DNA of 56,939 nt, taken from IMG/VR virus record IMGVR_UViG_3300023179_000127, positions 1 to 56,939 of that record. One strand, 5' to 3'. How positions within the stretch are numbered: position 1 is the first letter of the stretch; every line of letters starts with the position of its first letter. Below are positions 4,287-22,481 of this stretch, in pieces. The notes beneath the pieces are model-generated. The model was not told the origin of the DNA. It saw only the letters and a program-made list of their open reading frames with translations, and did not search any database. A program made the translations under genes and the position numbers. The stretch is from a virus. Its lineage: Duplodnaviria > Caudoviricetes.

Positions 4287-4916
4287 TTATGTTCCTATTG
4301 TTAGTGCCCTGGTAACTGGGTTAATGTACAATCTACCGGGCCCAGGGTTAAAGTAGCTCAAGGTGGATGTATCAACGTTAGAAATATCAACAAATAATTG
4401 TCTGTTGTTATTGATCTTTATGCTTACCCCGTCATAGTTTACACGAACAGGAGAACTTTCTGTTGTTCTAGCAAGCCCGTTATTAAAGTCAAACAAGTTG
4501 TTTGAAATGTGCACCGCGCTCAATCCGTATTCTTTGACTCTTAGCAGTGAGCCAGCTGGGTATGTGATGGTTGTTTCATCAACTAATGTGGATATCTGAG
4601 CATAAGCATCTCTATTATCATAATCTGGGTACAAGCTTTCATTGTATCCAGTTAATACAAACAAGCGAGTGGATGTGCTGTCAAACATTAGATCGCCTAC
4701 TTGAATGGTAGGTAAATTAGACAGCTGATCAATTCTACCAGTGTAAAGCTTCATGCCTGCAGGATTACCGCCAGGTGTAGCGCCATCACCAACAAATAAT
4801 CTACGAGAAGATGGGTCAGTAACATAGCCAATCTCACCGTTTTCCAAGATAACTAGCTTTCTCTCGTAATCAGTACCGCGTCTAATTTTAATTTTTGCTA
4901 TTTGTACTGTTGCCAT
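4287..4916 (-). CDS. Short fibre-anchor protein (Mtd_N-like), paralogous to the N-terminus of 1920..4283
   Basis: IKIRRG...LENGEIGYVTD...RLFVGDGATPGG matches the neighbouring fibre N-terminus. Confidence 0.7.
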   Translation of the reverse strand: MATVQIAKIKIRRGTDYERKLVILENGEIGYVTDPSSRRLFVGDGATPGGNPAGMKLYTGRIDQLSNLPTIQVGDLMFDSTSTRLFVLTGYNESLYPDYDNRDAYAQISTLVDETTITYPAGSLLRVKEYGLSAVHISNNLFDFNNGLARTTESSPVRVNYDGVSIKINNNRQLFVDISNVDTSTLSYFNPGPGRLYINPVTRALTIGT

Positions 4917-4955: not shown

Positions 4956-6419
4956 TTATGACGGTATAGTGGCAGGAACACCTTGAGGAACACTCTTCTT
5001 CACAAATCCCATGGTAGAACTTATGTAGTTTTCGGAAACTAGAGCGTTAAGAAGAATTTTTTGATATTCATATATGCGTTTAAGAACTCGGTTTACTACA
5101 AAATTAGTGACTAACTCATTTTCTCCAATAAAATTCTCTATATCTTGTTGAAAGATAAGCTGGTTTAATTCTTTTTCATTAAAATACCTAGTGCCCTTGA
5201 ACAGATAATTACCTTTGCTATCTTTTAATTGTAAAAACTTACCTTCTATTTGATCTCTGAATCTCATATGGTTAATAAGCAATTTGGCAATTGCTTTGTT
5301 AAATACCCAGTTTTGAACATATTCATCTTCACCTAAATGAATTTCTTCTTTAGTATACACGTCAAAATCTGGAACAGATAATACATCGAACAAATTAATG
5401 TTGTCATAAAACAAGCTAAATTTACCAGCATTATTATCAACATCTTTAGAAAACATTAATGTAAAATCATTAAATTTTTCTTTCGCAGGGTCTGGGTCGA
5501 CATCAATTTTAGCAACATCAAATGCTCTGATTTTTTCTTTTGTGTTAAATTGAAACAAATAGAACAGATACCACCCTACCGTATAAAAGGGATATCTTGT
5601 GAATTTTTTGTATATATTGTTTTCTGTGACCACATAACATAATGATGGGTCAGTGGGTGAAAAATAAATTCTATTAAAAAATTCATTTTGCGGCATATCG
5701 TATGTTAGTTCTTTGAGATCGTAAACGTATTTGTTGTTAAAATTGTCAATGTAAGATAATAATTTTTGATTGCTAGTGAGTACAGCAATTTCATTATCAA
5801 TAGTTGAATTAATAAAGATTGGATATGCTGATAAAAAGTCTTTGGTTAGCAAATAGGTAAATTTCCAGTTGAGGTTTTCATCAAACCTTTTAATGCAGTT
5901 GTTAGATGAATCTAAAACTAGCAATTCGTCGTTTTGAACACACATACTTCTAGGTGAGTTAAAGGACGTTTTATCCGCAAAGTTACCAATGTCACCTATT
6001 GTGTCAACATACATGAGTTTGTGTTTTAGTATGTTATTTTCTGTTGTAAATCCATCTATTTTATAAGAATGTAGTTGTGATGTACCAGCATCAAGAACAT
6101 AAAAATGATTTTTAATTAAACTAAAAGCAGTAATTTCTTTAAAGTATGTGCTCGAGCCTGTAAACACCTCGTTAGTGCTCAATACTAATGTTATAGAAGA
6201 TAGGTCTAGAGGTGATTCAAAAATGCATATATCATTTCCCTTGGAAGCAGCAAGATAAATTTTTTCTTGCGTTTCATTAGGTATTAATTTAATAACCCGT
6301 ATGTCATCTATGTTGTCAAAAAATGCGTTATATAGAGGTAAAAACTGACTAGTGCTAAGCTGACTTGGACCTGTTGTGCTCCACATGAAATTTTGTACAC
6401 CGGTGAAATCCATGCTCAT
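4956..6419 (-). CDS. Putative virion beta-propeller (NHL-like) protein, 487 aa
   Basis: FYVLDAG, FNSPRSM...LLVLDSSNNCIKRFD resemble NHL repeats. ATGA overlap with the upstream gene. Confidence 0.6.
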   Translation of the reverse strand: MSMDFTGVQNFMWSTTGPSQLSTSQFLPLYNAFFDNIDDIRVIKLIPNETQEKIYLAASKGNDICIFESPLDLSSITLVLSTNEVFTGSSTYFKEITAFSLIKNHFYVLDAGTSQLHSYKIDGFTTENNILKHKLMYVDTIGDIGNFADKTSFNSPRSMCVQNDELLVLDSSNNCIKRFDENLNWKFTYLLTKDFLSAYPIFINSTIDNEIAVLTSNQKLLSYIDNFNNKYVYDLKELTYDMPQNEFFNRIYFSPTDPSLCYVVTENNIYKKFTRYPFYTVGWYLFYLFQFNTKEKIRAFDVAKIDVDPDPAKEKFNDFTLMFSKDVDNNAGKFSLFYDNINLFDVLSVPDFDVYTKEEIHLGEDEYVQNWVFNKAIAKLLINHMRFRDQIEGKFLQLKDSKGNYLFKGTRYFNEKELNQLIFQQDIENFIGENELVTNFVVNRVLKRIYEYQKILLNALVSENYISSTMGFVKKSVPQGVPATIPS

Positions 6420-8185
6420 GCTACTCTCCCTATTTTTGGATAATTAGATGCAAGTGGGTGCATGTTACCTGTGCCGCCGCCATGGAAGAATTGATTGTTG
6501 CCACCAATAAATGTGAAGTTATATCCATTTCTTACCATTGCGTATCCAGGTGTACCAGTACTGCCTCTATTTTCTTGCCCGTACCCCCAGTTACCAAGAC
6601 TACCGCCATCTCCTGCTCCGTAGCAGAATTCTCCGCATTTGGCACCTACAAGCCATGAACTGTTTTGTTGTTCTTGTAAAATACCGCAATTTTGTGCTTG
6701 ACATCCATTATTGAGCCAGTAGTTGTAGCATTCTGACCATGAATTAATACCGCGTTCAATCGTTCTATCAGAGCATGCTTGCAAGCTTTTCCATCCTGAA
6801 TTAGCAATACAGAAATTTATGCCTCTCGCATTAGCTACCCCGGCTCCAGCTCCACCCACCAAGCTAACACCGTTAATATTTTCAAATTTATCAAACCAAT
6901 AGTTAGTACTATCCATTTCACCACGACCACCGCCGCCAGCAATAATACCATCATTAATTATTTTTAAATCCCAATCTAAATGTATTGCATCGCCGGCTTT
7001 ATCAATAGACGTACCATTTAATTTGTAATGGTATTCCCAATCTTGCAAAACATTATCTGCTCTGGATGATCTGCATCTACCATATAGGAAGGCAGTAGCC
7101 AATCCATTCTCCACATTAGAGCTGTCTTGACCATAACCGGCTATTACACCTTGAGCAGGGAAATCTATGTTGCCAGCTTGACCGTTTTCTGTGCAATAGT
7201 TAGTTGCTCCATTGGTAGGTCTGCTATATACTGCAGTCGCAGCTTGAACCTTCTGAGTTCCTATGACTTGAGGGTTAATCAAAGTAATTTCACTACCAGA
7301 AGGCCAACCAATACCGGTTCTAAGAGCAGGCCCTTTGCCGCGCGTGGCGCCAATAACACCTTTGTTAACAAAAGTAGCGATAACAGGATTTGAAAAGGAA
7401 TCAGCTTTTCTATTTAGCTTCATCATCATGTATTCAAACAAGTTAACATCAAGAGTCAAAGCTCCATATGATCCAATTTCAATGTATACAAATTCTAAAG
7501 GTACAGATGTGGAAGGCGTGTTGGTATTTGTAACTGTTTGCGTTAAAGTGGGTGTTTGTGTAGGTGTAAGTGTCAATAATGGTGGTGTTTTAGTATTGGT
7601 AAGTGTGGGTGTCATTGTGAGCGTCGGTGTTCTCGTATTAGTGATTGTTTGAGTTGGTGTTCTTGAAGGGGGTTGTGTAGCAGTAGCGGTTTTTGTAGGT
7701 GTAGGTGTAGTAGTTAGATTAGGTGTAAGTGTAGGTGTACGTGTTACAGATATGGTAGGTGTCACTGTAGGAGTGGGTGTAACTGATCTTGTTAAAGAAA
7801 TAGTAGGAGTCAGTGTTTGTGAAGGTGTAACTGTGCGTGTAACTGTAATTGTGGGGGTTACTGTAGGTGTATTAGTAACAGTTATGGTCATTGTTGGTGT
7901 TATAGTAGGTGTTTGAGATATGGTTAATGTAGGTCTTGGGTATGCGCTTAACCCTGCCACACCTACACATGAAACCGGTATAACATTAGACGCAATTCTA
8001 GAATGTTCGTACAGATAAAGAAAATTGTCATACAGTTTATCTAGTCGTACATTAATAGAATCTGTAGTAATCATTTCATTTACAGGTATTTTTATGCTTT
8101 CAAAATCGTACGGTAGTTCTAGCTTCTTATTGACGTATCTGTCAAAGAATCTGCCAGCATTTTTTGCTATTTCGAAAATGTTCAT
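6416..8185 (-). CDS. Thr/Pro-stalk protein with C-terminal gp38-like glycine-rich adhesin domain, 589 aa
   Basis: ~80-aa globular N-term, ~150-aa T/P tract, then NKGVIG...GWPSGSEITLIN...GVIAGYG...INDGIIAGGGGRG...GGAGAG. Confidence 0.6.
   Translation of the reverse strand: MNIFEIAKNAGRFFDRYVNKKLELPYDFESIKIPVNEMITTDSINVRLDKLYDNFLYLYEHSRIASNVIPVSCVGVAGLSAYPRPTLTISQTPTITPTMTITVTNTPTVTPTITVTRTVTPSQTLTPTISLTRSVTPTPTVTPTISVTRTPTLTPNLTTTPTPTKTATATQPPSRTPTQTITNTRTPTLTMTPTLTNTKTPPLLTLTPTQTPTLTQTVTNTNTPSTSVPLEFVYIEIGSYGALTLDVNLFEYMMMKLNRKADSFSNPVIATFVNKGVIGATRGKGPALRTGIGWPSGSEITLINPQVIGTQKVQAATAVYSRPTNGATNYCTENGQAGNIDFPAQGVIAGYGQDSSNVENGLATAFLYGRCRSSRADNVLQDWEYHYKLNGTSIDKAGDAIHLDWDLKIINDGIIAGGGGRGEMDSTNYWFDKFENINGVSLVGGAGAGVANARGINFCIANSGWKSLQACSDRTIERGINSWSECYNYWLNNGCQAQNCGILQEQQNSSWLVGAKCGEFCYGAGDGGSLGNWGYGQENRGSTGTPGYAMVRNGYNFTFIGGNNQFFHGGGTGNMHPLASNYPKIGRVA
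7500..7940 (-). repeat. Degenerate Thr/Pro coding repeat tract
   Basis: TPTxTxTx repeats; boundaries approximate. Confidence 0.9.
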
Positions 8186-11100
8186 TAGTTTTTCCAGGTA
8201 ATGTTATTTAACTTGACATGTGCGGGTATCAATTTGCTAGCTATTTCACGTATTTTACCTTCTAATTCTGCCTTAAACTGTGTATCTACTATTCTACTGT
8301 TGTTAATGTTTAGATTTATCACATTTGACTTGTGCCCGGGTAATTTAAATTTAAAGAATCTTTCAATTTCTTCTATGAAATTGCGTTTTCCACAAGGTAC
8401 ATAAAAATTAATATCCCGTACTTTCATGTTTGCTTTAGAGTGATTTATAATATCATAAGATAGTAATGCTTTATCATAAATGTACAGGTTTTTTATTTTT
8501 ACTCCCTCTGCTAAGCTTGTCTTTTTCTTCAAATATTTGAAAAGTGGCACTGAATATGCGGCACCAGATGTTCCAATTAAGAAGGGCTTATGCACAAATT
8601 CTCTCATGGTGTATTTTGCTGGCATAAACCTAGTAACATTAGTGTAAATACCGTCTATGTACAAATCCATTTGACCGATGTCACAATTAACACGTACAGC
8701 AAAATTGTGATACCCAGCATCTAACTGAGTTAGATCAAACCGCATTTCTGGAAGAATAATATCATTATAGTTGCTAGGTGTAGCTACAACAAGCTTGATG
8801 TTTAAACTGCTATCAGGATAGGCATCATGTATGTATTCTCTTAAATATTCGCTGTTGTTTATCTTTCCGAATGCGCTTGATGTGCTTTTGTAGTAAGTTG
8901 TTTTGAGTGTAGGTACTGCTTCTGCTGCGTCCAGCACGACATACTCTACATAGTTGCTGCTTAATGGGCTTAATCTGGAAAATACGATCCTGTCACTTAC
9001 ATCTGATTCAATAAATTCAGTTAAAAGATTTATTTTGTAGTTCTTAAAGCCGCTAGGCAACGTACTTGATAGCATTACATTGAATGTAGCAGGGTCTATC
9101 TTAACATAATTTTTGTCTTGATCTAGTACCCAAATAAACCCGTCGAAATCAATAGTAAAATCATTTATAACTGTTGCTGCATGTACCATTGAAACAATGT
9201 TTGTGCTTAAATTCCAATAAAATACACTATTATCTTTGAGATAATAAATCTGCTCACCGCGGCGTTCTGCTTTGTCTCCATCAGTAAAGAAAATTATATC
9301 ATTATCTTGTATTGTTGCAGCGTGAATTGTTTTTATTGTTGACAAATTTTTAGAGAATGATGTGCCAGGTACAAATCTTATTGAGTAAAAGTTTGAATTT
9401 AAGCTTTCATAAATTTCATCTGTAAGTAAATTGTATCCTTGTATGGTAAGATTGGTTCTTCCTTGTTTGCCATACATGCCACCATCGTTGGCTGATAACA
9501 TTAGTGCTAAATGACCGTAAATGTCAAAGTCCAATATGTCATTTATTCTTCCTTTCACTTGTCTGGACACTACCTCAACATTGTTAGGATTGTATTTTGA
9601 TATTTCACCGTCGCTGAACATGATATGGTAATCAGTAAAATCGTTTGTTCTAAAAATATACTTTATGTCTTTGTTGAACTGCAATTTTCTCAAAACAGTA
9701 AAGTCTGTGTTTGTTATATCTATGTTGCGATTTCCACCTAAAAACATTAATGCAGTGTTAGGGACATAATTGTATATGCTGAACCCGTACTTATCAAGAT
9801 TGCCTATGATTTGATTGCCGAATGGCTTTGACCAATCAGCACAGTACATGTCAAATATAATTGTAAACTCAGAACTTTCACCTATGCTTGATAAATTAGC
9901 TGAGTTTGTGTATCTGTTACCATCAAAAACAAACTCAGCATCTGGTTCAATAACATCAAACACTTCAATATCCCCTGTAGTTCTGAATGTGCTTACATTT
10001 CGTTGAACAAGATATTCGTTCAGTGCTTCTATTCTGTGTTTAACTCCTTCTGGCCCGACTCTATAATAAGCATAATAACAACCAGGTTCAAAAGTAAGAG
10101 CAGACGGTGTATCAAAAATATCATACTTGTCTGCATCTGGTATTTTGTTAATTTTATTTTGAAACTCTGGCACATAATACATGGCTTTAAAATCGTCTGC
10201 AGTAAGAGCATTAAAGAAATTTACTTTCTGTGGGTTATAGTATCTGTCAACCCACACTGGGCGAGAATTAACGTCACCATTACCAGATAACCAGCTACAT
10301 AAAAAGCTTCCTGTTTGTTCATCAATAGCATCACCGAAATAAGATGAATGTTTGTAATTAGCTAGTTTTTTAAATACTAAATCAGATTTTAAAGGGTGGT
10401 CGGCTGCAGTAGCACCAGCTTCAATTAACCCCGAATCTCTAATGTTGATTCTGTTGAACGGGTACATGTCTGTTGGCATATGAAAATATGTAATTTTGTC
10501 GTTCTTAAGTAAAATTTTGGTAGAGAAGGTTTCATAACCAAGCGATATATTGTCATTACCATAGTTTTGACGTGACCCGGTGAATAATTTTTTGTAGTCT
10601 CTAAAGTTGCACAAGTCTTCATCATAAAACGGTGCGTTTCTTGCTTGACCACCTTCAGATGTGAAAGTATTTTTTAAAGACAATATGTTTACTGGCATTT
10701 CATTGCCAGTGATAGCGTAAAATTCACTGTTAACGAGTAGGTTCGATTTTATATTAGGAAAACTTACATTTTCATCAATTTCTGTTGAATTTGTTTTAAA
10801 AGTTTTTTCATACGACACCCATGAATCTTGTATTTTTGAAACATTAGCTGGATCAGATCTTTTTATACATTTAAAAATAGATTTTAAATCAAAAGGAAGT
10901 GCAAACCCTGTGACCGGATCTGTTAATGTTAATTTTTCTTCTTCATTTATTATAACATATTTTGCTATATCGTTAATATTTTTATAGAAGACGATGTAAT
11001 CAGAATCTCGGTCATACAAATAGTAGAATATTTGAGGACTGTATCTACCTAAGTAATCTGATTTAGTATCTTTACAAAATATTAAATTTCCTATGTAATC

Positions 11101-11571
11101 TACTGTCAAATATCTTGTTACATTGAACATTTCATGAGAAATTTTGCAAAATTTGTCGTCTAGCAAAGTAATATCAAAATAATATCTGTTATCAATGTAT
11201 TGTTGTCTCCCGGATACCGCAACAGTAGCAGTTCTTTGATCAATTTCAGGTTCTTCTGTAACCCAAAACCTAGTGAAGTTATTAATTCCTAATAACGCGT
11301 TGGCTGCAAGGTATGTTGAGAAGCCTTCATCTTCCAACGGCTTCAAGTTTTCAATGTAAATGTTGCTATCTAATGTGTCATTGCGTGTTAAAAACAAGTT
11401 AGAGAAATTATTAATAGCATTATCATTTGATTTGTAGAAAATATCATTTAGAGGGAATGAAACATTGTGTTCAGTAAAGAATATAGACTCATTAAACTTT
11501 AAATTCTGATCATGCACATAAACAGAGGATAAAGGCCTAAACGTTACAGGCGTGAACTCCTTAACAACCAT
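8185..11571 (-). CDS. Large virion structural protein with LamG/concanavalin-like domain interrupted by a propeller-like insert, 1128 aa
   Basis: FVFDGNRY...FTIIFDMY...QIIGN, then ~350 aa later GYHNFAVRV...MDLYIDG...FLIG...IKNLYIYDKAL. Confidence 0.6.
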   Translation of the reverse strand: MVVKEFTPVTFRPLSSVYVHDQNLKFNESIFFTEHNVSFPLNDIFYKSNDNAINNFSNLFLTRNDTLDSNIYIENLKPLEDEGFSTYLAANALLGINNFTRFWVTEEPEIDQRTATVAVSGRQQYIDNRYYFDITLLDDKFCKISHEMFNVTRYLTVDYIGNLIFCKDTKSDYLGRYSPQIFYYLYDRDSDYIVFYKNINDIAKYVIINEEEKLTLTDPVTGFALPFDLKSIFKCIKRSDPANVSKIQDSWVSYEKTFKTNSTEIDENVSFPNIKSNLLVNSEFYAITGNEMPVNILSLKNTFTSEGGQARNAPFYDEDLCNFRDYKKLFTGSRQNYGNDNISLGYETFSTKILLKNDKITYFHMPTDMYPFNRINIRDSGLIEAGATAADHPLKSDLVFKKLANYKHSSYFGDAIDEQTGSFLCSWLSGNGDVNSRPVWVDRYYNPQKVNFFNALTADDFKAMYYVPEFQNKINKIPDADKYDIFDTPSALTFEPGCYYAYYRVGPEGVKHRIEALNEYLVQRNVSTFRTTGDIEVFDVIEPDAEFVFDGNRYTNSANLSSIGESSEFTIIFDMYCADWSKPFGNQIIGNLDKYGFSIYNYVPNTALMFLGGNRNIDITNTDFTVLRKLQFNKDIKYIFRTNDFTDYHIMFSDGEISKYNPNNVEVVSRQVKGRINDILDFDIYGHLALMLSANDGGMYGKQGRTNLTIQGYNLLTDEIYESLNSNFYSIRFVPGTSFSKNLSTIKTIHAATIQDNDIIFFTDGDKAERRGEQIYYLKDNSVFYWNLSTNIVSMVHAATVINDFTIDFDGFIWVLDQDKNYVKIDPATFNVMLSSTLPSGFKNYKINLLTEFIESDVSDRIVFSRLSPLSSNYVEYVVLDAAEAVPTLKTTYYKSTSSAFGKINNSEYLREYIHDAYPDSSLNIKLVVATPSNYNDIILPEMRFDLTQLDAGYHNFAVRVNCDIGQMDLYIDGIYTNVTRFMPAKYTMREFVHKPFLIGTSGAAYSVPLFKYLKKKTSLAEGVKIKNLYIYDKALLSYDIINHSKANMKVRDINFYVPCGKRNFIEEIERFFKFKLPGHKSNVINLNINNSRIVDTQFKAELEGKIREIASKLIPAHVKLNNITWKN

Positions 11572-11596
11572 AGAATTATTTATTAACAGGTAACTA

Positions 11597-12826
11597 TTAT
11601 CTAATAGTTCCTAAGTAGGGCCCGTATATTAAGAATGATGTGAAAGCTCCTGCATATGCTTCTTTGAATGAACCGCTAAGTACTTGCCATTGAGTGATAT
11701 ATTGACCGGTAAAGGCTAAGCCATCGCCAGCGCCAAGCTGACCCTCTTCATTTCTACCTACAGAATACGCATGATTTTCATTATCTACAACAACTGTGTG
11801 TTCATACCCTGCAGCTATTGATTTAATAGGGACACCGCCCCATGGACCTATGTTAGTTATATTTATAAAGCTAAGTGACATTGCTTGGCTGTTATTACCT
11901 AGCTGACCGGCATTATTAAATCCTGTAGAATATATTTTACCATCTTTGTCAATAGCAATTGTAAATGTAGATTTGCATGCAACATCTCTCCATACTATGT
12001 TGTCTGTGTTTTGCACAAAATATTCAGTTAATGTAGATGTACCTAATCCTATGGCGCCGGATAAGTTTGTACCAGCAGTAAACATGTTGTAATTACCGCC
12101 GCCGACGGATGATAGTAATATAGTAAAGTTGTTACCACAAAACACTTTGTCAAATCTAGGCTGTTCAACAGGAGTTACATTACCAGCCAAGCGAACTCTG
12201 GCGGGTGTTATGGGTGTAAATGAATAAAAGTTTGAAAAAGCAATTTCATTGAACCCGCATTGTGCATCAATATTTAAACCTGTTGTAAGTGCAACGCCAT
12301 CAGAACTTAATGCGCATGTGTGTAGCAAACCGCATGCAACATCTTTGAAACTGCCATTAATTGGTGTGAATAGTGCACAGCTTAACACACTTACACCGAG
12401 TCCCAATTGACCTTGTTCATTGTAACCAGTAACATACAGAGTGTTGCCTGCAATAGCTGCAGAATGTACAATACCAGCAGCAACTTTAGTGAAATTGGTA
12501 GGTGTTGGTACTCTTACAGTGCCTGGACCATCAAACATTGTAGAGGATACTTCAGGTACTAAACAAAACGAACTCACAATAAAGGTATGAGTGTTGGTCA
12601 CATTGTTGTCTAGACCTAACAAGCAACCTGTAAACTTATTAGATGGTACTGGATGACCAGGATTAGGCTCTAGAAGCAAATCTTTTACTAAAGGAACAAC
12701 ATCATTTACACCGGCACCGTATAATTTACCAGTAGAATCAATTGCAAGTGTATGATAATAACCACCGCCAACAGAATCCCATGTGCCTGTATTGGCAATG
12801 AATGTGGTTTGGTATGTCTGATTCAT
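11597..12826 (-). CDS. RCC1/BLIP-II repeat beta-propeller, 409 aa, lacking the first half-repeat
   Basis: Repeats such as GYNEQGQLGLG...VACGLLHTCAL, GFNNAGQLG...IAAGYEHTVVV and GRNEEGQLG. Confidence 0.85.
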   Translation of the reverse strand: MNQTYQTTFIANTGTWDSVGGGYYHTLAIDSTGKLYGAGVNDVVPLVKDLLLEPNPGHPVPSNKFTGCLLGLDNNVTNTHTFIVSSFCLVPEVSSTMFDGPGTVRVPTPTNFTKVAAGIVHSAAIAGNTLYVTGYNEQGQLGLGVSVLSCALFTPINGSFKDVACGLLHTCALSSDGVALTTGLNIDAQCGFNEIAFSNFYSFTPITPARVRLAGNVTPVEQPRFDKVFCGNNFTILLSSVGGGNYNMFTAGTNLSGAIGLGTSTLTEYFVQNTDNIVWRDVACKSTFTIAIDKDGKIYSTGFNNAGQLGNNSQAMSLSFINITNIGPWGGVPIKSIAAGYEHTVVVDNENHAYSVGRNEEGQLGAGDGLAFTGQYITQWQVLSGSFKEAYAGAFTSFLIYGPYLGTIR

Positions 12827-12862
12827 ATTAGTATTTATTTATTTGGTTAATTTTCATAGTGA

Positions 12863-15166
12863 TTAGTAATTTTTAGCCTCATCAAAAGCATTCAATGCAG
12901 CAATGGTTGTTGTTGGAGAAGGTGTAAGAGTACGTGTATTAGTTGGTGTAGAGGTGTTAGTATTTGTAACTGAAACTGTGGGTGTTTGTGTAGGTGTATC
13001 AGATGGCGTAGCAGTCACTGATTCTGTTGGTGTCTGAGTAGGTGTATCAGTCACTGTAGGTGTAGGTGTCAGAGTAGGTGTGTTAGTAGGTGTCAGAGTC
13101 TGTGTATATGTTTGTGTTGGTGTAGCTGTTTTAGTTAAAGTAGCGGTGTTAGTTAATGTAGCAGTCTGTGTAACAGTGTTGGTCATTGTAGGTGTACTGG
13201 TCACTGTGGGTGTTGGTGTTACTTCTGTTGCAGTGTTGGTTGGTGTTGGGGTATGAGCCCATGGTACCCCTGCAGGAATAGTTACTGTTCTGGTTAAAGT
13301 AGGTGTGTTAGTAGGAGTTCTTGTGGGTGTTACTGTTAAATTAGGTGTCAAGGTGGGTGTTAATGTGGGGAATGGAGTTTCAGATGCTGTATAAGTTTGT
13401 GTTAATGTTGGTGTTGTGGTGTCAGTCACTGTTGGTGTAGGTGTTAGCAATGTTCCTGTGTTGGTTTGTGAAGGTGTATAAGGAGGTACCCCTGTTGAAA
13501 CAGTTACGGTAGGTGAAACGGTGGGTGTCAGGTCTGGTGTAGTTGTAGGTGTCTCTGTTAATGTGTTGGTAGGTGTTGCAGTCACTGTTGTAGACACTGT
13601 CTGAGTAGGTGTTGGTGTCATAGTGATGTTTGTTTCTGTAATTGTCATGGTGTTGGTAACTTGTGGAATGTCTAATCCAAGTTGACCGTGCATGTTGATA
13701 CCAGCGCGGAACATGGCCTCGGTTACTGGTGTCGGCGTTGGTGTCGGTGTAGCAGTTGTAGTACGAGTAATTGTTGGTGTGTTTGTGGATGTTATTGTCT
13801 GTGTAGGAGACAATGTCATGGTGTTCGTTAGTGTAAATGTTGGTGTTTGTGTTACAGTGTTTGTTAACGTTTGAGTTGCAGTTATTGTAGGTGTAGGTGT
13901 TGGTGTTCTGTAGTTCTTGGACTCGTCTTCGCCAACCAATATAGCGGGTGTAGGTGTAACTGTGTTTGTTACTGTCAAGGTTACAGTCTGTGTTACAGTC
14001 TGTGTATTGGTTGGTGTATTTGTAGGAACTTGTGTAGGTGTAACAGACGGTGTCTGTGTTGCTGTCTGCGATACAGTAGGTGTATTGGTTGCAGTTGTTG
14101 TCGGCGTCTGTGTAGGTGTATCGGTAAGTGTAACAGTTGGGGTCTGCGTCTGAGTATTTGTGTTGGTATTTGTAATAGTAGGTGTGCATGTTGGCGTCTC
14201 GGTTTGTGTAGACGTGGGTGTGACTGTCTGTGTAACTGTTCTTGTAGGTGTTTGTGTGAAGGTTGTTGTAGGTGTCTGTGTAGGAATAGCAGTAGGTGTA
14301 AGTGTGTTTGTAGGAGTAACAGTTCTTGTGAGTGTGTTTGTTGGTGTAACTGTGCGTGTCATTGTTAATGTAGGTGTTACTGTAGGTGTTAGAGTGAATG
14401 ACGGCGTCAATGTCAAGGTCAGTGTTATTGTCGGTGTCAATGTCATGGATGGAGAAATTGTAGGAGTAGGTGTCGGTGTAACAATTTCATCTGATATTGC
14501 AACGTTAGACAAATATTTCTTACCTTTTAGTTCCATGACCATCAAATCATTTTCATACAGCTTGTTGTTGACTTTGCTAAACGGTAATTGACGCGCTTCT
14601 AACAAATGTATGTCGCCTAATTCATAAACTGAGTCTTGCAACACGCACAAGATATAATTGAACGTGGTTTGTGTCATGTTACCGTTAATAACACTAATAG
14701 ATGGATAATATGTTGTTAGATAGTTACTAGATTGTTTGTATACATGTGGTACGTTTACTAGATTAGGAAATAATGATTGTTTGGGGTTCTTTTCATCAAT
14801 ATTTTCAATAATATCTTTGCTTATGTCAGTAATTTGACCGTCACCAAAATTATATATAATTTTTAATACTGCAAAAGTAGACGCTTCTAACGCAGACGGC
14901 ATGAATACAACAGTGGTATCACCTTTGCACAGGGGTAATGGCTGCCACGTTACTGTATCTTTGATGGGATAACCATATGGGAAAAATAACCCGGCATTGG
15001 CACGTGATGTATACTTTGAGGGAGCAGCTTCAAATATATCACCTGAAGCAGATACCGGAAATTCAATTTCTGTATCATAAACTGGGTCTAAAAACAAATA
15101 ACCGTTTAAAAACTCACCTCCAACATACGGGACACTGGATGATAAGAGAACTGACAGAGTGTTCAT
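12863..15166 (-). CDS. PKD-like domain plus very long Thr/Pro tract carrying an RCC1 half-repeat island, 767 aa
   Basis: [11 protein letters not shown]-like motif; ~530 aa of T/P repeats; [17 protein letters not shown] island; AGGAGG upstream of the ATG. Confidence 0.7.
12905..14480 (-). repeat. Degenerate Thr/Pro coding repeat tract (~530 codons)
   Basis: GT-rich plus strand (gtaggtgt...); boundaries approximate. Confidence 0.9.
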
Positions 15167-17727
15167 TATGGCCCTCCTTCAGACGGTGTTGGGGTTGGTG
15201 TGGGAGCCGGTGTCATGACTTCAAATAATAGATCATTTTGATTTTGATTGTTTTCTACCCATCCAGCTATTGGTATATTATTTACATCTGTTGAAGGGTT
15301 GTTAGCTATTACTTGACTGGAGTCCAAATTAAATAGCACCCATGTGCTGCCTATGCTATTGTCAGTAGCCACACTAGGATCCATGAATACCATTAGGTTG
15401 TATTGCCAAACATAGCCGCTACCGCTAGAATTCTTAATGTACGTACCATTTAATTGATAATTTGGATTAGAAGCCTGTACATTGTATACTAAGAAATTGT
15501 CATTTGAAGTGCTAATACTGTAATTAGGTGTTGTAGTAATTGTTGGGGTTGGGGTTGCAGTAGGCTCATTTGTTGTTGTTTGAGTTAATGTCACTGTGAC
15601 AGTAGGTGTGTTTGTGGGTGTTTCAGATGGTGTGAATGAAGGTGTATAAGTCAATGTACTTGTTTGTGTGACTGTTGGTGTATTTGTAGGTGTCTTTGTT
15701 AGTGTCGGTGTTAATGTAGGTGTCTCAGTTAATGTGGGTGTAGCAGTAGGGGATAGACCTGGTGTTGTTGTTGACGTGACAGTGCATGTGTTGGTAGGTG
15801 TAGGTGTTACATTGGGACTGTATATAACATCAACTAATGGTTTTGCTTTGCCTTGCAGTGAATTCCATTCTAAATTGCTTATTACGGCAGAAGCATTGTA
15901 ATAAGTGTCTGTGTTGAGCGTTGCATCAAATAATACCCATGCATCTAATGACGGTGAAGACGGTGTGCTGATTGTACGGAACTGGATAGTGTTGCCATTT
16001 GGTCCAATAAAGTTTTCAGTAGCGCTAGATCTTGTATACAATCCAACAGATGATGCATCTTCTGCTTCAACAACATTAATAGCAGAAATGTAGTTTGAAG
16101 TGAACGGTGTGTATGTGGGTGTTACTTCAAGATCCCAAACAGGGGTAGCTGTCGTGGTGGTAGTGGGTGTAGCAGTGGGTGTAGGTGTTGATGTTTCAGA
16201 AACAGTAGGTGTTAAAGTTTGAGTTGCTGTTGATGTAGGTGTTACTGACTCTGTTGGTGTTAATGTAGGAGTTTCAGTCAACGTGGGTGTAGGTGTTGAT
16301 GTGATTGTTTCAGTAGGTGTAATTGAAGGTGATACAGTTAGTGTGGGTGTTTCAGTCAATGTCGGGGTAGCTGTTACAGTCTCAGTAGGTGTATATGTAG
16401 GTGTAGCTGTTACAGTCTCTGAAACTGTAACTGTTGGTGTCGGTGTTGCAGTATAGAGAGGAATATCTACACCGACTTCACCAAATCTGTTTTGACCGGC
16501 GCGGAACATAACTTCTTGTGGTTCTGTCGGTGTAGGTGTGGATGTAACTGTATTGGTCGGTGTGGGTGTTTGTGTAACGGTCTCTGATACTGTAATTGTT
16601 GGTGTTTGTGACGGCGTTACAGTCAATGTTTGGGTCAATTCCGGTGTACCTGTTGGTGTAGGTGTAACTGACTCTGTTGGTGTCATGGTAATCGATTGTG
16701 TTGGTGTTACAGAAGTTGTAGGCGTTACTGATTGCGTCTGAGTAACAGATTGTGTAGGTGTAGATGTAACTGTACCAGTTATTGTTGGCGTTACAGTTGG
16801 TGTAGCTGTAGGAAATGCAGTACGGGTTGGTGTAACTGTTGGGGTAACTGTTCTTGTAGGTGTAGGTGTTAACGGCCGCGTGTTGGTCTGTGTTACAGTT
16901 TGTGTTACTGTTTTTGTAGGCGTTGGGGTTGTTGTGGGTGTAAAAGATTGAGTTAGTTTGGGTGTTAAAGTTACAGTCTTTGTGGGTGTAGGTGTAACTG
17001 TAGGTAGAGGCAGAGTTTGTGTTAAACCGGGTGTCAATGTGACTGTAACAGTAGGTGTTACAGTTAATGTATTGGTGACAGTTGGTGTGGGTGTGAGATA
17101 TGGGTTCGTCTCTGTTGGTGTTAATGTGGGTGTAGGTGTCGGCGTAAATTCAGCTTTTGCATCTGTGTAGAATGCATTTGAATTTAAGCTTTTTATTTTA
17201 AGCATTGTATCTGTGGATTCAAACAATGGTTTTGCAAATGAAAGGACAGGGTAAACGCTTGGCGGAAATGCTATTTTTTCGCGTAAGTCAGTTTTGAACA
17301 GTGTAACAAATTTGTCTTTAATTTTGTGTTCTACTTCTAGCGTTCTGCCTTGATTTGTTAGTCTCACTCTGAATGTTCTGTATTCTGGTACAATTCGCAA
17401 TTTAGTTTCAATATCTTCAGAAGAAGCTGGTCTATATAGTGTGAATGGCTCTTTAAAAGAAGATAATGCGAGGTTATCACTAACAAACAACAATTCATTT
17501 TCAAAAAATTGTGATATTGTAGGTGTAGGTATAATAGTTCTGGTTAATGTTTGTGTGGGTCTGGGTGTTCTGGTGGCTGTAGGGGTGTTTGTTATTCTAA
17601 ATGTTGTAGTTAATGAGATTGTTGGTGTGACTGTGGGTGTCCATGTGGTTGTTGGTGTTCTAGTAGCTACAGGTGTTAAAGTTAGAGTAGGGGTACTGGT
17701 TAACGTGGGTGTTGGTGTCGGAGTCAT
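15166..17727 (-). CDS. Thr/Pro mucin-like protein with lectin C-half, RCC1 half-repeat island and two small beta domains, 853 aa
   Basis: Starts directly in TPTP repeats, with globular islands at ~17161-17510, 16459-16509, 15820-16104 and 15214-15504. Confidence 0.7.
15185..17727 (-). repeat. Thr/Pro coding repeat tracts interrupted by globular islands
   Basis: Seen in translation; boundaries approximate. Confidence 0.9.
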
Positions 17728-17805
17728 TGTACCTTATTCTCCAGCATGCAGTTCATAGAATTACTCTATTATTTAATAAGCGAATCTAGCTTTAAAGGTC
17801 TTAAC

Positions 17806-19494
17806 TTATTTTATAACTGACCAAAAAGGTGCCCATTCACCAGGTAAAACAACAGGGCCTAACTTAAATGCACGGTTAAACCCAATTACAGCCATGGTTC
17901 CGTCCGAATTTAATGCTAATAACGTGTATTCGTTACCAAAGCCGTTGCTAGCAACATCTACTATCTTATTGCCGCTCATAGTGTTAAAGGGTGGGTTCAC
18001 TTCAATCCAACCTTTGTGATCACCTACGCCTTGTGTGCCAGGCATGTAGCCTGCAGCAAATAAACGACCATTATCTAGTAATAGCAAAGTTGTAGTAAAT
18101 TTGTTTGTACCGCCGCAAACTACAGTTTTAATAGTACTATCATATTCTCTAGCATCAAAAACTTTAGTAAATAGCTTAGTAGTGCCATCTGTTAAACTAT
18201 TGCCTAATTGCCCATAACCATTGTATCCGCAAGCGTATAGTTCATAACTGTCACTGGTTTTATAGAAAGTACTAGGAAACTCACCACCACCGGTATAAAC
18301 TGCGCCGACATTTACTGCTATTTGAGTGGCGCGTGTCAATTCTAAAGTGCTGTTGTTGCCTAATTGACTGTATGTATTAGCTCCCCACCCGTAAAGTATA
18401 CCGGCAGCATTAAGAGCAAAACAAGTTGACCCTACATTTGCTCCTTCTATTGCAATCTGAACAATGTTTGTTAAAGTTGTTTTGCTAATATCATTTTGAA
18501 CAGAATGCCAAATAGGATTTACAGACGCTTTGCCCCCGTCACCCATTTCTCCGTTAGAACCAGAGCCTATCGCTTTAACTTGACCGTTATTTAATAAAGC
18601 TAGTACTGTTGATCCTTTGGATATGACATAGTTTACGTTGGAAAGGTTGCATGAAATAACAGAACGCTTGGGTGTTGTGTCACCAGTGCCTAGCCAGCCG
18701 TAACTATTATGACCAAACCCATATAAGTCGTTGGTATTACTAGTGATAAACATTGTAGCAGAATTGCCACGAGTATGAAACGGTAGCATAATATTTTTAG
18801 GTACAAAGCCTAGCTCAGTTTGGCTTAAACTGTTTGCAATATCAAAATAAAGATAATTGTTTGTGCTGCCTTTACCATCACCAAAAGACCAATTACCGCC
18901 TAAAAATATTCTGCGCTCAGTGGTAATACCTGCCCAATATTGATAACCGTTGTAAACATAATCCCAATTATAATCGCGGTATGTGTAGGTGTTTCCAGCA
19001 GGGTTAACAGGATAAAAGGCGCTGTAACCTGTACGAACCTGTGATAAACCTACACTGTTAGTATTTCCAGAAAAGATTATGTGTTTTTGATTGCGGGAAA
19101 CAAGCAAATTGTAATCATATGCTCCTGCATTGCGTGGCAGCCCATTATATGAAAATCCTGTTGTATTATCAAGCGCTCCTAAGGAAGTAATTTTAATGTT
19201 ACCTGTACTAAAATCTAATGAGATACCATCTCCTGCAGAAAGCGATAATACACCATTATTTGATAGTACTACTCTGTTACCATCACGGAAAACATTAATT
19301 CCAGGGTTGCTTGATTCAATAGAAGTTACAGGGTCATTGCCTTCAGAAGATACTTGCACTTCATCCCATTTAGTCAAAAGATCATTTACAGTGATTTTGT
19401 ATGTGCCTGTATCATCTTGAATAATAAGATAATCAGTAGGTAAAGGGCTACCTATTAGCTTTGGCAAATCATTAATTTTGATTACATTCGACAT
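17806..19494 (-). CDS. RCC1-repeat putative receptor-binding protein with fibre-type N-terminal module, 562 aa
   Basis: N-term IKINDLP...TYKITVNDL; repeats LYGFGHNSYGWLG, LYGWGANTYSQLG, LYACGYNGYGQLG. Confidence 0.8.
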   Translation of the reverse strand: MSNVIKINDLPKLIGSPLPTDYLIIQDDTGTYKITVNDLLTKWDEVQVSSEGNDPVTSIESSNPGINVFRDGNRVVLSNNGVLSLSAGDGISLDFSTGNIKITSLGALDNTTGFSYNGLPRNAGAYDYNLLVSRNQKHIIFSGNTNSVGLSQVRTGYSAFYPVNPAGNTYTYRDYNWDYVYNGYQYWAGITTERRIFLGGNWSFGDGKGSTNNYLYFDIANSLSQTELGFVPKNIMLPFHTRGNSATMFITSNTNDLYGFGHNSYGWLGTGDTTPKRSVISCNLSNVNYVISKGSTVLALLNNGQVKAIGSGSNGEMGDGGKASVNPIWHSVQNDISKTTLTNIVQIAIEGANVGSTCFALNAAGILYGWGANTYSQLGNNSTLELTRATQIAVNVGAVYTGGGEFPSTFYKTSDSYELYACGYNGYGQLGNSLTDGTTKLFTKVFDAREYDSTIKTVVCGGTNKFTTTLLLLDNGRLFAAGYMPGTQGVGDHKGWIEVNPPFNTMSGNKIVDVASNGFGNEYTLLALNSDGTMAVIGFNRAFKLGPVVLPGEWAPFWSVIK

Positions 19495-19512
19495 ACAATA
19501 ATATTTATTAAA

Positions 19513-22443
19513 TTACAGCTCTAAATGAACATCTCCAAGCATATCTTCATGACCTGAAGGTCCTTCATTGTTGTCTGTAGTGGGATCTTTTAATCCCGGG
19601 ATAAAGATGTTTCTAACTGGATTAAACCTTGCAGGTGTTGATGCGGCTTTGCGGCTTCCATCGTTTTCTACAACTTGAACAGTATAGAATGTATCTTGTA
19701 CATTAGGTATTTGAATCTTTCTCACTGATGTGTTGTCGCCTTGAGAAGATGTCCAGTTTATACCGTCAGCTGTATAGAGCAATGTGACTTGAGTACAATC
19801 TAGTGATGTGCATTTGATGTTCCATGTCCACATAGTACCGTCCATGGAGCTAGTCATGCGAACCATGGTGGGTCTTCTGCCATATAATGCTGTATGTGTC
19901 ATGGTCATAGTTGGTGTGGGTGTAGGCGTTAATCCGGATGTTTGAGTAAAGGTAGGTGTCATGGATGGGGTAGGTGTGACTGTTCTTGTTGGTGTAACAG
20001 TCGGGGTACCGGTCATAGTTGTAGTCGGGGTGTTGGTTGGTGTATCGGTAACTGTTGCTGTGACCGATTGAGTTGGTGGCGGTGTTGGTGTGTTTGTAGG
20101 TGTAGAAGTAATTGTTTGAGTCATACCTGGAGTCAATGTCACTGTAGGTGTCACAGTTAATGTTGCTGTTTGGGTAATGGTTAATGTGGGTGTAGCAGTT
20201 GGCGAAACAGACGCTGTCACAGAAATTGTAGGTGTTTGTGTGGGTGTTAATGTAGATGTACGAGACACAGTATTTGTTACTGTGGCGGTTGTAGTGGGTG
20301 TTGGTGTTGTCTTTCCTGACGCAGTATTGGTCATGGTAATAGTAGGTGTAAATGTTGGTTGTGGTGTGCGTGTAGAAGACATTGTCGGTGTAGGTGTTGG
20401 TGTAACAGATGTGATTGTGGGTGTGGGTGTGACTGGTGTACCTGTAGGTGTTGGTGTACCAGAAGGTATAGGTTCAGGTATATAGTACCTGTTTGTAGGT
20501 CCTCTTACAGCTATGGTATTAGGACGAGGCATTCCATATCCCAGCAATCCATAAGCAGATGTAGAAAACATTCCTGTTAAATCAAATCCTATGCCAATTA
20601 CACCATGCGGTATACCTGTGAATAATGCTCTGCTAAGCATTCCATCATCATCTCTGTACACATCTAACTTGCTATATCCTAGAGAAGGGCCCGGGCCACC
20701 ACCTGTTAACGGGCTCAAGAATGAATCAACTAATGATAAACAGAAGCCTTCACCGCCAGTGAGATGTTCACCGTAACATGAGTATTCAAACGTTATGACA
20801 ATGTCCTTCTTGGTATCTAATTGTTGATCCAAATAAATGGCGCCGGAATACGCAGTAAGCATGTATTCCATTGTCATAAATTGTGTGTGAGTAATAGTTG
20901 GTGTAAAGGAAGGGGTTACTGTGATGGTAGGTGAATTAGTAGGCGTGGCATTAGGGGTTGTTGTTGGTGTTCTTGTAACTGTAGGTGTGAGTGTATATGT
21001 GACAGATTGAGTTGGTGTCTGTGATGGAGGACACACACCTAATGCAACTAAAGGAGCAGGGCTTGATCCATTTACTGGAACCCAGCCAGTTGTAGGTATA
21101 TAGAAAGGTACTTTAGATGGGTTAGTATATTTTACATTGCCTTTATAAAACTGCCAATCAGGGTTATACCAATCACCGAAATATAAGATGGGCGTAAAAG
21201 TACCGACCCTGCTAAAATATGTGTTGTTAGGTAGTAATTCATATGTACCATTGACTTCACCGCTACCTGCAAACGATACACAAACGTTTGTTGCAGGTAT
21301 GTTGTATGTGGTGCTTGTCACTGTTGGTGACGGTGTGGGCGTCATTGTCAGTGTGGGTGTGGGCGTGGGTGTAATTAAATCATGAAAATTAATTAATTCA
21401 GTTTGAACGTCTGTTGTACCTAGAGCACAATCAAAAGTTTTTATAGCTGCTATGAGACCGTTATATCCTTCTGAATTAGTTGGATCATTTTTGTTTAAAG
21501 CAGAACCTACTGCAAAAGGATCAGTTGATGTGGCACTTAAATCTCCGAAGTAAGATGTAAACGGTATAGATAAGCCGCTTAAAGGAATTATTTTACCTGT
21601 GTCCTGTAAACCTTGGCTGTATGGTATTAGATATTGTAAATTACCGTTAACATATAACCTTACATTTTTTGTAGAAGCATTTAAAGATAATAATATATGC
21701 TTAAAGGAATCATCTGTAAGTACTTCTTCTTGTGTTTGATGGTAGATTGTATTGTTGTTAGAGAGTGAGCCTATGCCAATTACTACTTTTCTACCTTCTT
21801 GCTTTATAAAATAACCAGGTGCAAAGTTCCATCCACCTTTACCTACTATTCTGCGTGAGAAATTAGCAACGCTGCCAGATGCTACAACAGAAACTGTAAA
21901 GCTATCTGTGTCATGGTTATGCTTGCTATCATAAAAAGGAAAATATGTAGATAGTGCAGGAAAATTGTTAGAATCAGTAAATGTAAAAATTCTGTTTCCA
22001 TCTATACCGACATTATGAACAACGAGACTATTGTTGCCTTCTATAGACAAGTCGCGCACATAATCCCCGCTTTGACCGTCGCCTGAATAACAGTCTAACG
22101 ATCTGCTATCAATTGTCATGTCTAAGCAAATGTTAATGGTAGGGGTCGGTGATGGTGATTGCGAAGGCGTCTGAGTGGGTGTTATTGTATATGTTTTGGT
22201 CGGTGTGGGTGTTCTTGTGTATGGATTAGTTTCAGTTGGTGTTAAAGTAGGGGTCGGTGAAATACTTGTTGTTGGTGTTGCTGTTACTGTTCTGGTAGGA
22301 AATGGTGTTTGTGTAGCAGGCGGTGTAGCTGTTACTGTGCAGGTAGGTGTAGGTGTAGGGGTATTATAATACAACACGATATTTTGATTGATATCGGTTA
22401 ATAACCCTTGATTATTATCTGTTAATATTCTGTTGTCAGACAT
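19513..22443 (-). CDS. Multidomain Thr/Pro protein: LamG domain, small beta domain, L-type lectin N-half, C-terminal Ig/FN3-like domain, 976 aa
   Basis: LamG: SFTVSV...FKHILL...RLYVNG...YNGLIAAIKTFDCAL. Lectin: GGEGFCLSL...GPSLGY...IGIGFD. Confidence 0.7.
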   Translation of the reverse strand: MSDNRILTDNNQGLLTDINQNIVLYYNTPTPTPTCTVTATPPATQTPFPTRTVTATPTTSISPTPTLTPTETNPYTRTPTPTKTYTITPTQTPSQSPSPTPTINICLDMTIDSRSLDCYSGDGQSGDYVRDLSIEGNNSLVVHNVGIDGNRIFTFTDSNNFPALSTYFPFYDSKHNHDTDSFTVSVVASGSVANFSRRIVGKGGWNFAPGYFIKQEGRKVVIGIGSLSNNNTIYHQTQEEVLTDDSFKHILLSLNASTKNVRLYVNGNLQYLIPYSQGLQDTGKIIPLSGLSIPFTSYFGDLSATSTDPFAVGSALNKNDPTNSEGYNGLIAAIKTFDCALGTTDVQTELINFHDLITPTPTPTLTMTPTPSPTVTSTTYNIPATNVCVSFAGSGEVNGTYELLPNNTYFSRVGTFTPILYFGDWYNPDWQFYKGNVKYTNPSKVPFYIPTTGWVPVNGSSPAPLVALGVCPPSQTPTQSVTYTLTPTVTRTPTTTPNATPTNSPTITVTPSFTPTITHTQFMTMEYMLTAYSGAIYLDQQLDTKKDIVITFEYSCYGEHLTGGEGFCLSLVDSFLSPLTGGGPGPSLGYSKLDVYRDDDGMLSRALFTGIPHGVIGIGFDLTGMFSTSAYGLLGYGMPRPNTIAVRGPTNRYYIPEPIPSGTPTPTGTPVTPTPTITSVTPTPTPTMSSTRTPQPTFTPTITMTNTASGKTTPTPTTTATVTNTVSRTSTLTPTQTPTISVTASVSPTATPTLTITQTATLTVTPTVTLTPGMTQTITSTPTNTPTPPPTQSVTATVTDTPTNTPTTTMTGTPTVTPTRTVTPTPSMTPTFTQTSGLTPTPTPTMTMTHTALYGRRPTMVRMTSSMDGTMWTWNIKCTSLDCTQVTLLYTADGINWTSSQGDNTSVRKIQIPNVQDTFYTVQVVENDGSRKAASTPARFNPVRNIFIPGLKDPTTDNNEGPSGHEDMLGDVHLEL
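19895..22365 (-). repeat. Four Thr/Pro tracts (~19895-20470, 20885-21025, 21310-21375, 22135-22365)
   Basis: Seen in translation. Confidence 0.9.
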
Positions 22444-22481
22444 ATATTTTATTATTTACGTTGTTGCTTCCATTTGTAAAG

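Follow-up and report, generated by a model that had tools for sequence, protein, structure and literature searches.

Candidate trans-completed binding domains among the Thr/Pro-rich fibre genes of a freshwater, distantly T4-like phage

Introduction

In chaperone-usher pili and in TasA fibres, an incomplete beta fold is completed by a strand of another subunit (donor-strand complementation) and an extracellular fibre is thereby built. Here we describe a candidate for a comparable arrangement in a phage: a block of genes at positions 4956-22443 of the viral contig IMGVR_UViG_3300023179_000127, in which an RCC1 propeller and an L-type-lectin-like domain appear to be divided among separate genes, some of whose products carry long tracts of threonine and proline (T/P). 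The window analysed is the whole 56.9-kb contig, which belongs to a distantly T4-like myovirus. An earlier note on this DNA had suggested that such pieces complete one another's folds and so snap flexible stalks together; taken as a whole, that interpretation is in our assessment partly supported.

Legume lectins of the two-chain (pea or lentil) type tolerate a break in the polypeptide, and the branched receptor-binding complexes of phages CBA120 and G7C are multi-headed devices whose fibres or spikes are attached via adaptor modules. In Aeromonas phage Aeh1 the NrdA or DNA polymerase gene is reportedly split, the fragments being thought to work together. Sec13 (with Nup145C or Sec31) and Seh1 (with Nup85) are open propellers completed by a partner chain, the proteins thus being tied together (PMC3115789); the concanavalin A precursor is cut and its halves swapped, and the L-type lectin fold tolerates the chain break (bioRxiv 10.1101/2020.10.28.360099).

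Results

An RCC1 propeller that appears to lack its seventh C strand

The genes of the block are transcribed in the order o1510, o976, o562, o853, o767, o409, o1128, o589 (which has a T/P tract) and o487. The open reading frames (ORFs) and T/P tracts are as the earlier note had described them: the ORF coordinates agree (Table 1), and the T/P content is 31-43% in o976, o853 and o767. The comparisons below involve two other contigs, L001 (a 39.7-kb viral contig, the same as L003) and L002 (a 5-kb metagenome contig).

In canonical RCC1 domains, such as that of human RCC1, a C strand at the N terminus closes the ring within one chain. With the three RCC1 families of Pfam tested (PF25390, PF00415 and PF13540), o409 scores above the gathering thresholds: 157.2 bits for WD40_RLD (cut-off 150), 106.7 for RCC1_2 (22) and 80.6 for RCC1 (21.7). 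Its sequence holds six "GxNxxGQLG" C strands beside seven A/B pairs. The AlphaFold2 model, made with 46 aligned sequences (predicted local distance difference test, pLDDT, 80.6; predicted template modelling score, pTM, 0.85), has seven blades, of which blades 1-6 have four strands each and blade 7 has two only (E387-392 and E397-401), so that it is not a ring of seven four-stranded blades. Nor does the ring seem to be closed within one chain: with a strict pattern, the C-strand motif precedes blade 1 in 30 of 40 distant homologues versus none of six members of the o409 family, a comparison in which the repeat register of the alignment is uncertain. The family starts only 15 residues ahead of blade 1. 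Because the chain ends after strand B of blade 7 and begins about 15 residues before blade 1, o409 would be without its "velcro" strand, C7.

The missing strand is not a peculiarity of the window. The four closest database relatives of o409 are 97, 84, 54 and 54% identical to it; these and the L001 copy are all 405-409 residues long, and all five have the same MNQ start and LIYGxYxGxIR end. With such recurrence, the truncated form is evidently no accident of one contig. (A single-protein search of viral contigs for close relatives of o409 found none; an alignment query then found L001.) The 16 N-terminal residues are conserved yet modelled as disordered, with pLDDT below 50 for residues 1-11; nine of the 16 are invariant across homologues down to 54% identity.

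The missing strand motif recurs as islands in the T/P tracts

The motif of the missing strand, MFRAGxNxxGQxGxDIP, is found as a conserved island of 17 residues within the T/P tracts of both o767 and o853. A position-specific C-strand profile was built from 467 segments of 116 distant RCC1 proteins and scored on all stop-free six-frame 20-mers of the window (ranks in Table 1). The o767 island comes directly behind six true blades and ahead of three weaker blades of o409 itself; outside the RCC1 genes, nothing else in the window matches the C-strand profile as well. The o853 island lies about 4 standard deviations (SD) above the mean.

An island is present in all six gene copies of the three phages, inside T/P tracts that vary in length and sequence: 266 residues follow it in o767 versus 99 in L611 of L001, and 430 in o853 versus 206 in L635. 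The identity of the islands across genomes is 53-71%. In L001 there is no conservation of three further short stretches of o767 outside T/P (VGEDE..., IPAGVPWAH and, at the C terminus, NAFDEAKNY). Likeness is greater between the two RCC1-strand islands within a genome than between orthologous islands of separate genomes. Those of L002 (around 1400-1500 and 3400-3500) are identical at 16 of 17 residues, with a proportion of synonymous differences (pS) of 0.08, and the L001 islands are likewise the more alike. This likeness suggests either gene conversion between the o853-like and o767-like genes or co-evolution of the islands with a shared acceptor.

The earlier note had proposed complex prediction for the fragment pairs; for the RCC1 pair such a prediction supports docking. 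With o409 (46-row alignment) and a 47-residue piece around the o767 island (4-row alignment) as input, three runs scored 0.65, 0.78 and 0.73 (median 0.73) versus 0.02 for the best of three controls; contact agreement between the runs was at least 70% and the pLDDT of the partner at least 53. When the tool was calibrated, 58 of 80 solved complexes reached the mark, as did 2 of 110 mismatched pairs; these counts apply only roughly here because alignments of our own were supplied. The predicted contacts join residues 10-30 of the island piece to strand B of blade 7 (o409 residues 395-403) and to the GQLG loop of blade 6 (361-365), as well as to the conserved N terminus (4-17) and to residues 83-87; island residues 15-19 are predicted to pair with o409 396-401. 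Because of these contacts, the island would occupy the position of strand C7, flanked by the last strand of o409 and its N-terminal segment. What the docking captures is a likeness to the RCC1 fold and not affinity.

An L-type-lectin-like domain cut in two

The second divided domain is shared between o976, which encodes its N half, and o853, which encodes its C half; o562, an entire RCC1 fibre gene, separates the two. An exhaustive HMMER search with o976 residues 514-660 gave 162 proteins at E<=1e-3. In many of these the matched part is an N-terminal stretch of about 125 residues, followed directly by some 100 further conserved residues. The N half aligns to 527-668 of the homologue P0126 and 6-129 of P0122, and the C half to 668-776 of P0126 (E 3e-10) and 138-240 of P0122 (E 2e-11); because these alignments adjoin in contiguous homologues, the two halves abut without overlap or gap.

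We sorted the homologues with profiles built from contiguous proteins, the N-half profile matching 148 of the 150 listed. The C half is contiguous with the N half in 90 of these 148, so that the pieces of this domain are indeed found in one chain, a point on which the earlier note had been prepared to see its proposal fail. Five more (P0170, P0172, P0173, P0174 and P0175) have a cis gap of about 112-143 residues with a T/P tract inside the domain, at another loop than the cut of the window. These five proteins have 700-780 residues, and P0174 also has a stretch that reads like a frame-shifted T/P tract. In one protein, P0121, the N half is followed by T/P without a C half; by its length (969 residues) and match positions (514-660) it is like the L001 orthologue of o976. 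Nine homologues are truncated, and 43 are more distant, the C-half profile matching nothing in them or matching far away.

Searching the PDB sequences with the lectin N half gave no match. For a contiguous homologue, P0130, AlphaFold2 gave a model with pLDDT 92 and pTM 0.89. The top Foldseek matches of this model are VIP36, ERGIC-53 and the peanut and pea lectins (about 240 columns, E ~1e-6, template modelling (TM) scores 0.43-0.57). On these matches, which are those of the homologue and not of the pieces of the window, the name "L-type lectin" holds at the level of fold. The cut of the window maps between strands E130-134 and E143-146 of the P0130 model, which leaves seven strands in o976 and six in o853. 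The earlier note had allowed that the fragments might fold as complete domains; according to the models, o409 and the lectin pieces are incomplete.

The homologue P0126 unites in one chain an RCC1 domain with its own initial C strand, a T/P tract, a contiguous lectin-like domain and a further T/P tract. An apparent "NQ" junction match between P0126 and the start of o409 was dropped, BLASTP having aligned shifted repeat registers.

Conservation of the layout

The same arrangement is found in the comparison contigs. L001 has a counterpart of o976, in which T/P follows the N half, and one of o562; both L001 and L002 have an o853-like gene (T/P start, C half, island), an o767-like gene with island and an RCC1 gene with the MNQ start. 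Word-index protein searches with the N-terminal domain of o767 and with the C half of o853 found nothing in the length ranges searched, which is no evidence of absence.

Synonymous differences between the window and its relatives are saturated (pS 0.64-0.89). The lectin N half has a proportion of nonsynonymous differences (pN) of 0.13 versus L001 (pS 0.70), and the C half 0.17-0.19 (versus L001 pN 0.19, pS 0.74). Elsewhere pN is 0.33 in the LamG domain, 0.31 in o409 and 0.26 in o562; the split pieces have the lowest values. As judged by these figures, the split pieces are under strong purifying selection.

Separate start signals

In the window, o767 and o409 share a reading frame that is interrupted by three stops in the short spacer between them (Table 1); in L001 their frames differ. 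The sequence ATAAATA, which resembles the T4 late promoter, stands 12 and 16 nt ahead of the o409 start codon. The minus strand has 13 copies, of which 10 lie within 60 nt upstream of a gene start (0.5 expected), nine of them at 12-14 nt and one at 16 nt; the sequence precedes 9 of 33 minus-strand gene starts, that of the sheath gene among them. Examples of the starts concerned are 4916, 11571, 12826, 19494, 32950, 39545, 46340, 46904 and 49218 (all minus strand); with ATAAATA so near the ATG, the leaders would be very short. On the sequence evidence, o409 has its own start signal and can be taken to be expressed independently.

Of the initiation signals that the earlier note had listed, the one before o409 (ATAAATA, at the usual spacing) thus stands, as does the ATGA overlap at 6416-6419, which follows from the ORF coordinates. 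For o853 the result is divided: GGAG and AAGG are found near the ATG, and the TAAATA, 48 nt upstream, is off the usual spacing. The start of o767 overlaps the stop of o853 (TAATG).

Integrity of the assembly

The T/P DNA is a degenerate 6/12-nt repeat with copies 60-77% alike, and the longest exact repeat in 4956-27014 is 21 nt. The o767/o409 junction is crossed without differences by contigs from two other studies (X3, over 12429-13257, and X5, over 12712-13243). Two long X7 contigs, which come from yet another study and represent a related strain, match collinearly at 11500-15739 and 16328-22444, and therefore span o409-o767-o853 and o853-o562-o976, respectively. The gene order, which the earlier note had feared to be an assembly artefact, is thus the same in L001, in L002 and in contigs of other studies, and misassembly is unlikely. 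Certain joints in X7 were set aside as unreliable, having sides of 20-35 nt in the T/P repeats of a strain about 90-95% identical. In low-depth sequencing runs, uncovered bins are uninformative.

The RCC1 protein o562 and the propeller o487

The product of o562 passes the thresholds for RCC1 (50.9) and RCC1_2 (47.0), and its WD40_RLD score of 142.5 is below 150. Read with the C-strand profile, the sequence appears to have seven C strands of its own, including one at the C terminus (GTMAVIGFNRAFKLG), and for this reason o562 probably needs no donor and is probably not an acceptor. Since o562 seems self-sufficient, there would be two donors (o767 and o853) for one type of acceptor (o409).

Of the two, possibly three, split domains of the earlier note, the RCC1 propeller and the L-type lectin stand; o487, the possible third, does not. 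A loose pattern search finds four distinct NHL-like motif sites in o487. Its low-confidence Atlas model (pLDDT 0.56) aligns with six-bladed NHL propellers at TM 0.42-0.56, too weakly for a blade count. Neither Pfam, nor the motif pattern, nor the Atlas model gives a sign of a split.

Table 1. Coordinates in the window of the genes, domain pieces and tracts discussed in the text.
Feature	Position	Strand	Remarks
o976, 976 aa, T/P-rich multidomain protein: LamG-like, small beta, lectin N half, C-terminal domain	19513..22443	-	Laminin_G_3 E 9.7e-8; orthologue in L001
Lectin N half, o976 aa 514-660 (core 525-654), ending ...PNTIAVRGPTNRYY and then directly T/P	20464..20904	-	162 homologues E<=1e-3
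199-aa T/P tract after the lectin N half in o976	19885..20481	-	
o562, RCC1 fibre-like protein between the lectin halves	17806..19494	-	blade count read from sequence
o853, 853 aa, T/P-rich: starts with T/P, lectin C half, RCC1-strand island, two small beta domains	15166..17727	-	
Lectin C half, o853 aa 73-189 (aligned part ~74-190)	17161..17511	-	matches P0122, P0126
RCC1-strand island in o853	16459..16509	-	profile rank 20/40,865; conserved in L001 and L002
o767, 767 aa: N-terminal globular domain, then T/P tracts with RCC1-strand island	12863..15166	-	
RCC1-strand island in o767 (MFRAG...GQLG), predicted donor of blade 7 strand C	13664..13714	-	profile rank 7/40,865
~250-aa T/P tract from the island to the o767 end	12893..13645	-	
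o767/o409 intergenic spacer, 36 nt	12827..12862	-	in frame but three stops (TAA, TGA, TAA)
o409, 409 aa, RCC1 propeller, predicted acceptor	11597..12826	-	seven A/B strand pairs, six C strands
o487, NHL-type propeller protein, 487 aa	4956..6419	-	one Pfam NHL repeat

Layout of the block and its genomic neighbourhood

The T/P tracts alternate with folded parts throughout the stalk-like genes. In o976 the order is T/P, LamG-like domain, T/P, small domain, T/P, 130-residue island, T/P and C-terminal domain; in o853 it is T/P, 117-residue domain, T/P, 17-residue island, T/P, small domain, T/P, small domain and T/P; and in o767 a 224-residue domain is followed by T/P, the 17-residue island and T/P. 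An N-terminal domain plus RCC1 makes up o562, and o409 is RCC1 throughout. Three non-T/P domains of about 90 residues in o976 and o853 (21031-21294, 15826-16089 and 15226-15513, minus strand) are alike by eye (NGTY ... W.LF ... GW), and no Pfam family matched them; the last, C-terminal in o853, is missing from the L001 orthologue. The o1510-like protein at L001:1-1513, compared with window 22482-23246 and 6416-7498, has an extra C-terminal Gly-rich domain (runs of G) that, judged by eye, is similar to the one at the C terminus of o589, which would mean module shuffling between fibre genes. The DNA coding for T/P can be read without stops in all three sense frames and also in antisense frames, which produces long spurious ORFs (HTYYYKYQ..., VGVGV...; for example 13422-14189, minus strand, and likewise minus-strand ORFs over the T/P tracts of L001 and L002); gene callers and frame-based arguments are unreliable inside the tracts.

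Among the products recognised by PHROG or Pfam are a gp6-like baseplate wedge protein, tail sheath, large terminase, clamp loader and primase. The terminase shares only 38% identity with its best match among cultured phages. From 4956 to 27014 every gene is on the minus strand, and the split-domain block is flanked by baseplate genes and by two fibre genes with Mtd_N and Peptidase_S74 domains. These adjacent fibre genes (1920-4283 and 4287-4916, minus strand) both begin with an Mtd_N (major tropism determinant N-terminal) domain, and the longer ends in the intramolecular chaperone domain Peptidase_S74. Near-identical DNA is found mainly in freshwater and lake metagenomes, from several studies and years; four sequencing runs contain at least half of the sampled words, two of these runs may be the source, and one run with a 0.32 share of the window DNA is labelled marine. 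There is no RNA run among the sequencing runs that contain window DNA, and a phage collection searched for near-identical DNA had none. The block is best explained as the fibre or adhesin module of a freshwater, distantly T4-like myovirus. Judging only from gene position, the split-domain proteins would belong to the virion.

Discussion

We favour, as fairly probable, the view that the pieces reassemble in trans after translation and thereby join fibre proteins to one another. This is the simplest account of the incomplete folds, the complementary pieces in neighbouring genes, their contiguity in relatives, the cis intermediates, the purifying selection and the docking result. The long T/P tracts would then be flexible spacers between small binding domains. 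The island of o767, and probably that of o853 too, would slot between the last strand of o409 and its N-terminal segment, closing the propeller and at the same time hanging a propeller head on the stalk. Similarly, the seven strands in o976 and the six in o853 would fold together, so that two stalk proteins would be joined without a covalent bond. A branched adsorption apparatus, which the earlier note saw as the product, is what we too would infer. A bolder and more tentative proposal, which we hold slightly less likely than not, is that a freshwater T4-like lineage assembles its fibre network by obligate trans-completion, with short strand "plugs" and half-domains on Thr/Pro stalks docking into incomplete propellers and half-sandwiches that come from other genes, and with heads that could be exchanged without changing the stalk. 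As for the origin of the system, T/P linkers were probably first inserted into domain loops and tolerated there, a condition that five homologues still have in cis; a stop/start, or the insertion of a cassette or gene, would then have cut the linker (gene fission), after which the dependence became fixed. Constructive neutral evolution is a plausible origin of this kind.

Several points weigh against reassembly in trans. Binding is predicted for the RCC1 pair and, for the lectin pair, is something we infer; and since the predicted complex largely rebuilds the canonical RCC1 fold from two pieces, the docking result may stem from solved RCC1 structures remembered by the model and not from true affinity. 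Only one acceptor is clearly incomplete, against two donor islands, and the o853 island scores below some chance 20-mers. No Pfam family matched the 47-residue island pieces, and none matched o976 residues 514-660 or ten of the contiguous homologues. The lectin fold match is moderate, with TM at most 0.57, and the interleaving of the lectin halves in both sheets is drawn from the known topology of the fold rather than from coordinates. Finally, the comparison covers three related phage contigs, two of which are close to each other.

The main alternative is that the pieces are conserved for other roles and do not complement one another: o409 could close, or work open, by itself; the islands could be spacers, protease sites or epitopes; and each lectin half could act alone or form homo-oligomeric swapped sheets in a multimeric fibre. 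Predicted binding that may owe its score to likeness with solved RCC1 folds, two donors for one acceptor type and the weak motif match of the o853 island would all fit such a state of affairs. Against it, the island is exactly the missing strand motif and is kept in six of six copies, the lectin halves adjoin without a break in contiguous homologues and no other parts of their genes are as constrained, and we know of no half lectin sandwich that folds alone. We consider this alternative unlikely, if by no means negligible. A further idea is that cassette insertion or recombination in T/P DNA broke the domains, and that what is left of them is decaying and now devoid of function. Variable tract lengths, the small o767 islands that are not conserved in L001 and the absence of the C-terminal domain of o853 from its L001 orthologue are what decay might leave behind; the halves, however, have pN of 0.13-0.19 despite saturated synonymous sites, the islands keep 53-71% identity and the layout is kept in three phage contigs. 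The selection figures largely refute this idea of decaying relics, and it is very improbable.

One polypeptide could also carry the whole domain, the pieces being united at or before translation through DNA rearrangement, RNA splicing, read-through or ribosomal bypass, a notion encouraged by the common frame of o767 and o409 in the window and by T/P tracts open in all three frames. The three stops between these genes, their different frames in L001 and the whole conserved gene o562 between the lectin halves speak against it, as does the fact that the only such joints seen in contigs are the unreliable ones of 20-35 nt in the T/P repeats of a divergent strain; we give it very little credence. 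Least probable of all is a gene order produced by faulty assembly of the repetitive DNA: the many copies of the 6/12-nt repeat, 60-77% identical, could invite such an error, but the longest exact repeat has only 21 nt, two other contigs have the same order and contigs from three other studies bridge the junctions. Even jointly, relics, joining at the level of nucleic acid and artefact have only a slim chance of being the explanation.

If reassembly in trans is real, protein-fragment complementation would here serve in nature to make a structural joint of a virion: a principle of fibre assembly beyond adaptor domains and trimeric coiled or beta-helical joints, and a donor-strand-like assembly code not yet described for virions. 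Two small, genetically encoded plug-and-socket pairs, one made up of the 17-residue peptide and its RCC1 propeller and the other of the lectin halves, might then be of use in protein engineering, and the series from contiguous domain through cis T/P insert to trans split would be a readable record of how a gene fission becomes fixed. For annotation there is a warning here as well, in that "incomplete" domains beside low-complexity tracts in phage genomes need not be pseudogenes.

Comparison with known systems

In the open-access papers and preprints searched (titles and the openings of abstracts), we found no description of split binding domains that join phage fibre proteins. The described systems resemble the phage block in part. 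T4-like split genes encode enzymes cut by the insertion of homing endonucleases, and the likeness lies in an ancestral gene cut by inserted DNA. In the phage block, by contrast, the divided domains are structural or binding ones, the insert is a fibre gene with T/P linkers, and the split may serve as a joint; only o562 (RCC1) lies between the lectin halves and the o767/o409 spacer is 36 nt, so that no homing endonuclease is found at either place. CBA120 and G7C build their branched complexes with complete N-terminal adaptor domains and not by the completion of split folds.

As to donor-strand complementation, the subunits of pili and TasA fibres are Ig-like or jellyroll domains that form head-to-tail polymers with the help of a chaperone and an usher, whereas the phage block would use a propeller and a lectin sandwich, with donors embedded as islands within T/P tracts. 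A Pfam scan of 14 ORFs revealed neither a PapD-like nor an usher family. In legume lectins a protease cuts one folded precursor, whereas the phage halves come from different genes, with another gene between them and T/P on their flanks. A further parallel is with Sec13 and Seh1 of eukaryotic coat and pore complexes, in which a six-bladed WD40 propeller receives an entire blade from its partner (PMC3115789). In the case of o409, a partner is predicted to supply the missing element (a median score of 0.73 versus 0.02), which is here a single strand and GQLG loop (about 17 residues) from a Thr/Pro tract for blade 7 of an RCC1-type propeller, a predicted binding. Propellers completed in trans and lectins with broken chains are thus already known; it is the use of split binding domains as joints between phage fibre proteins that seems to be new.

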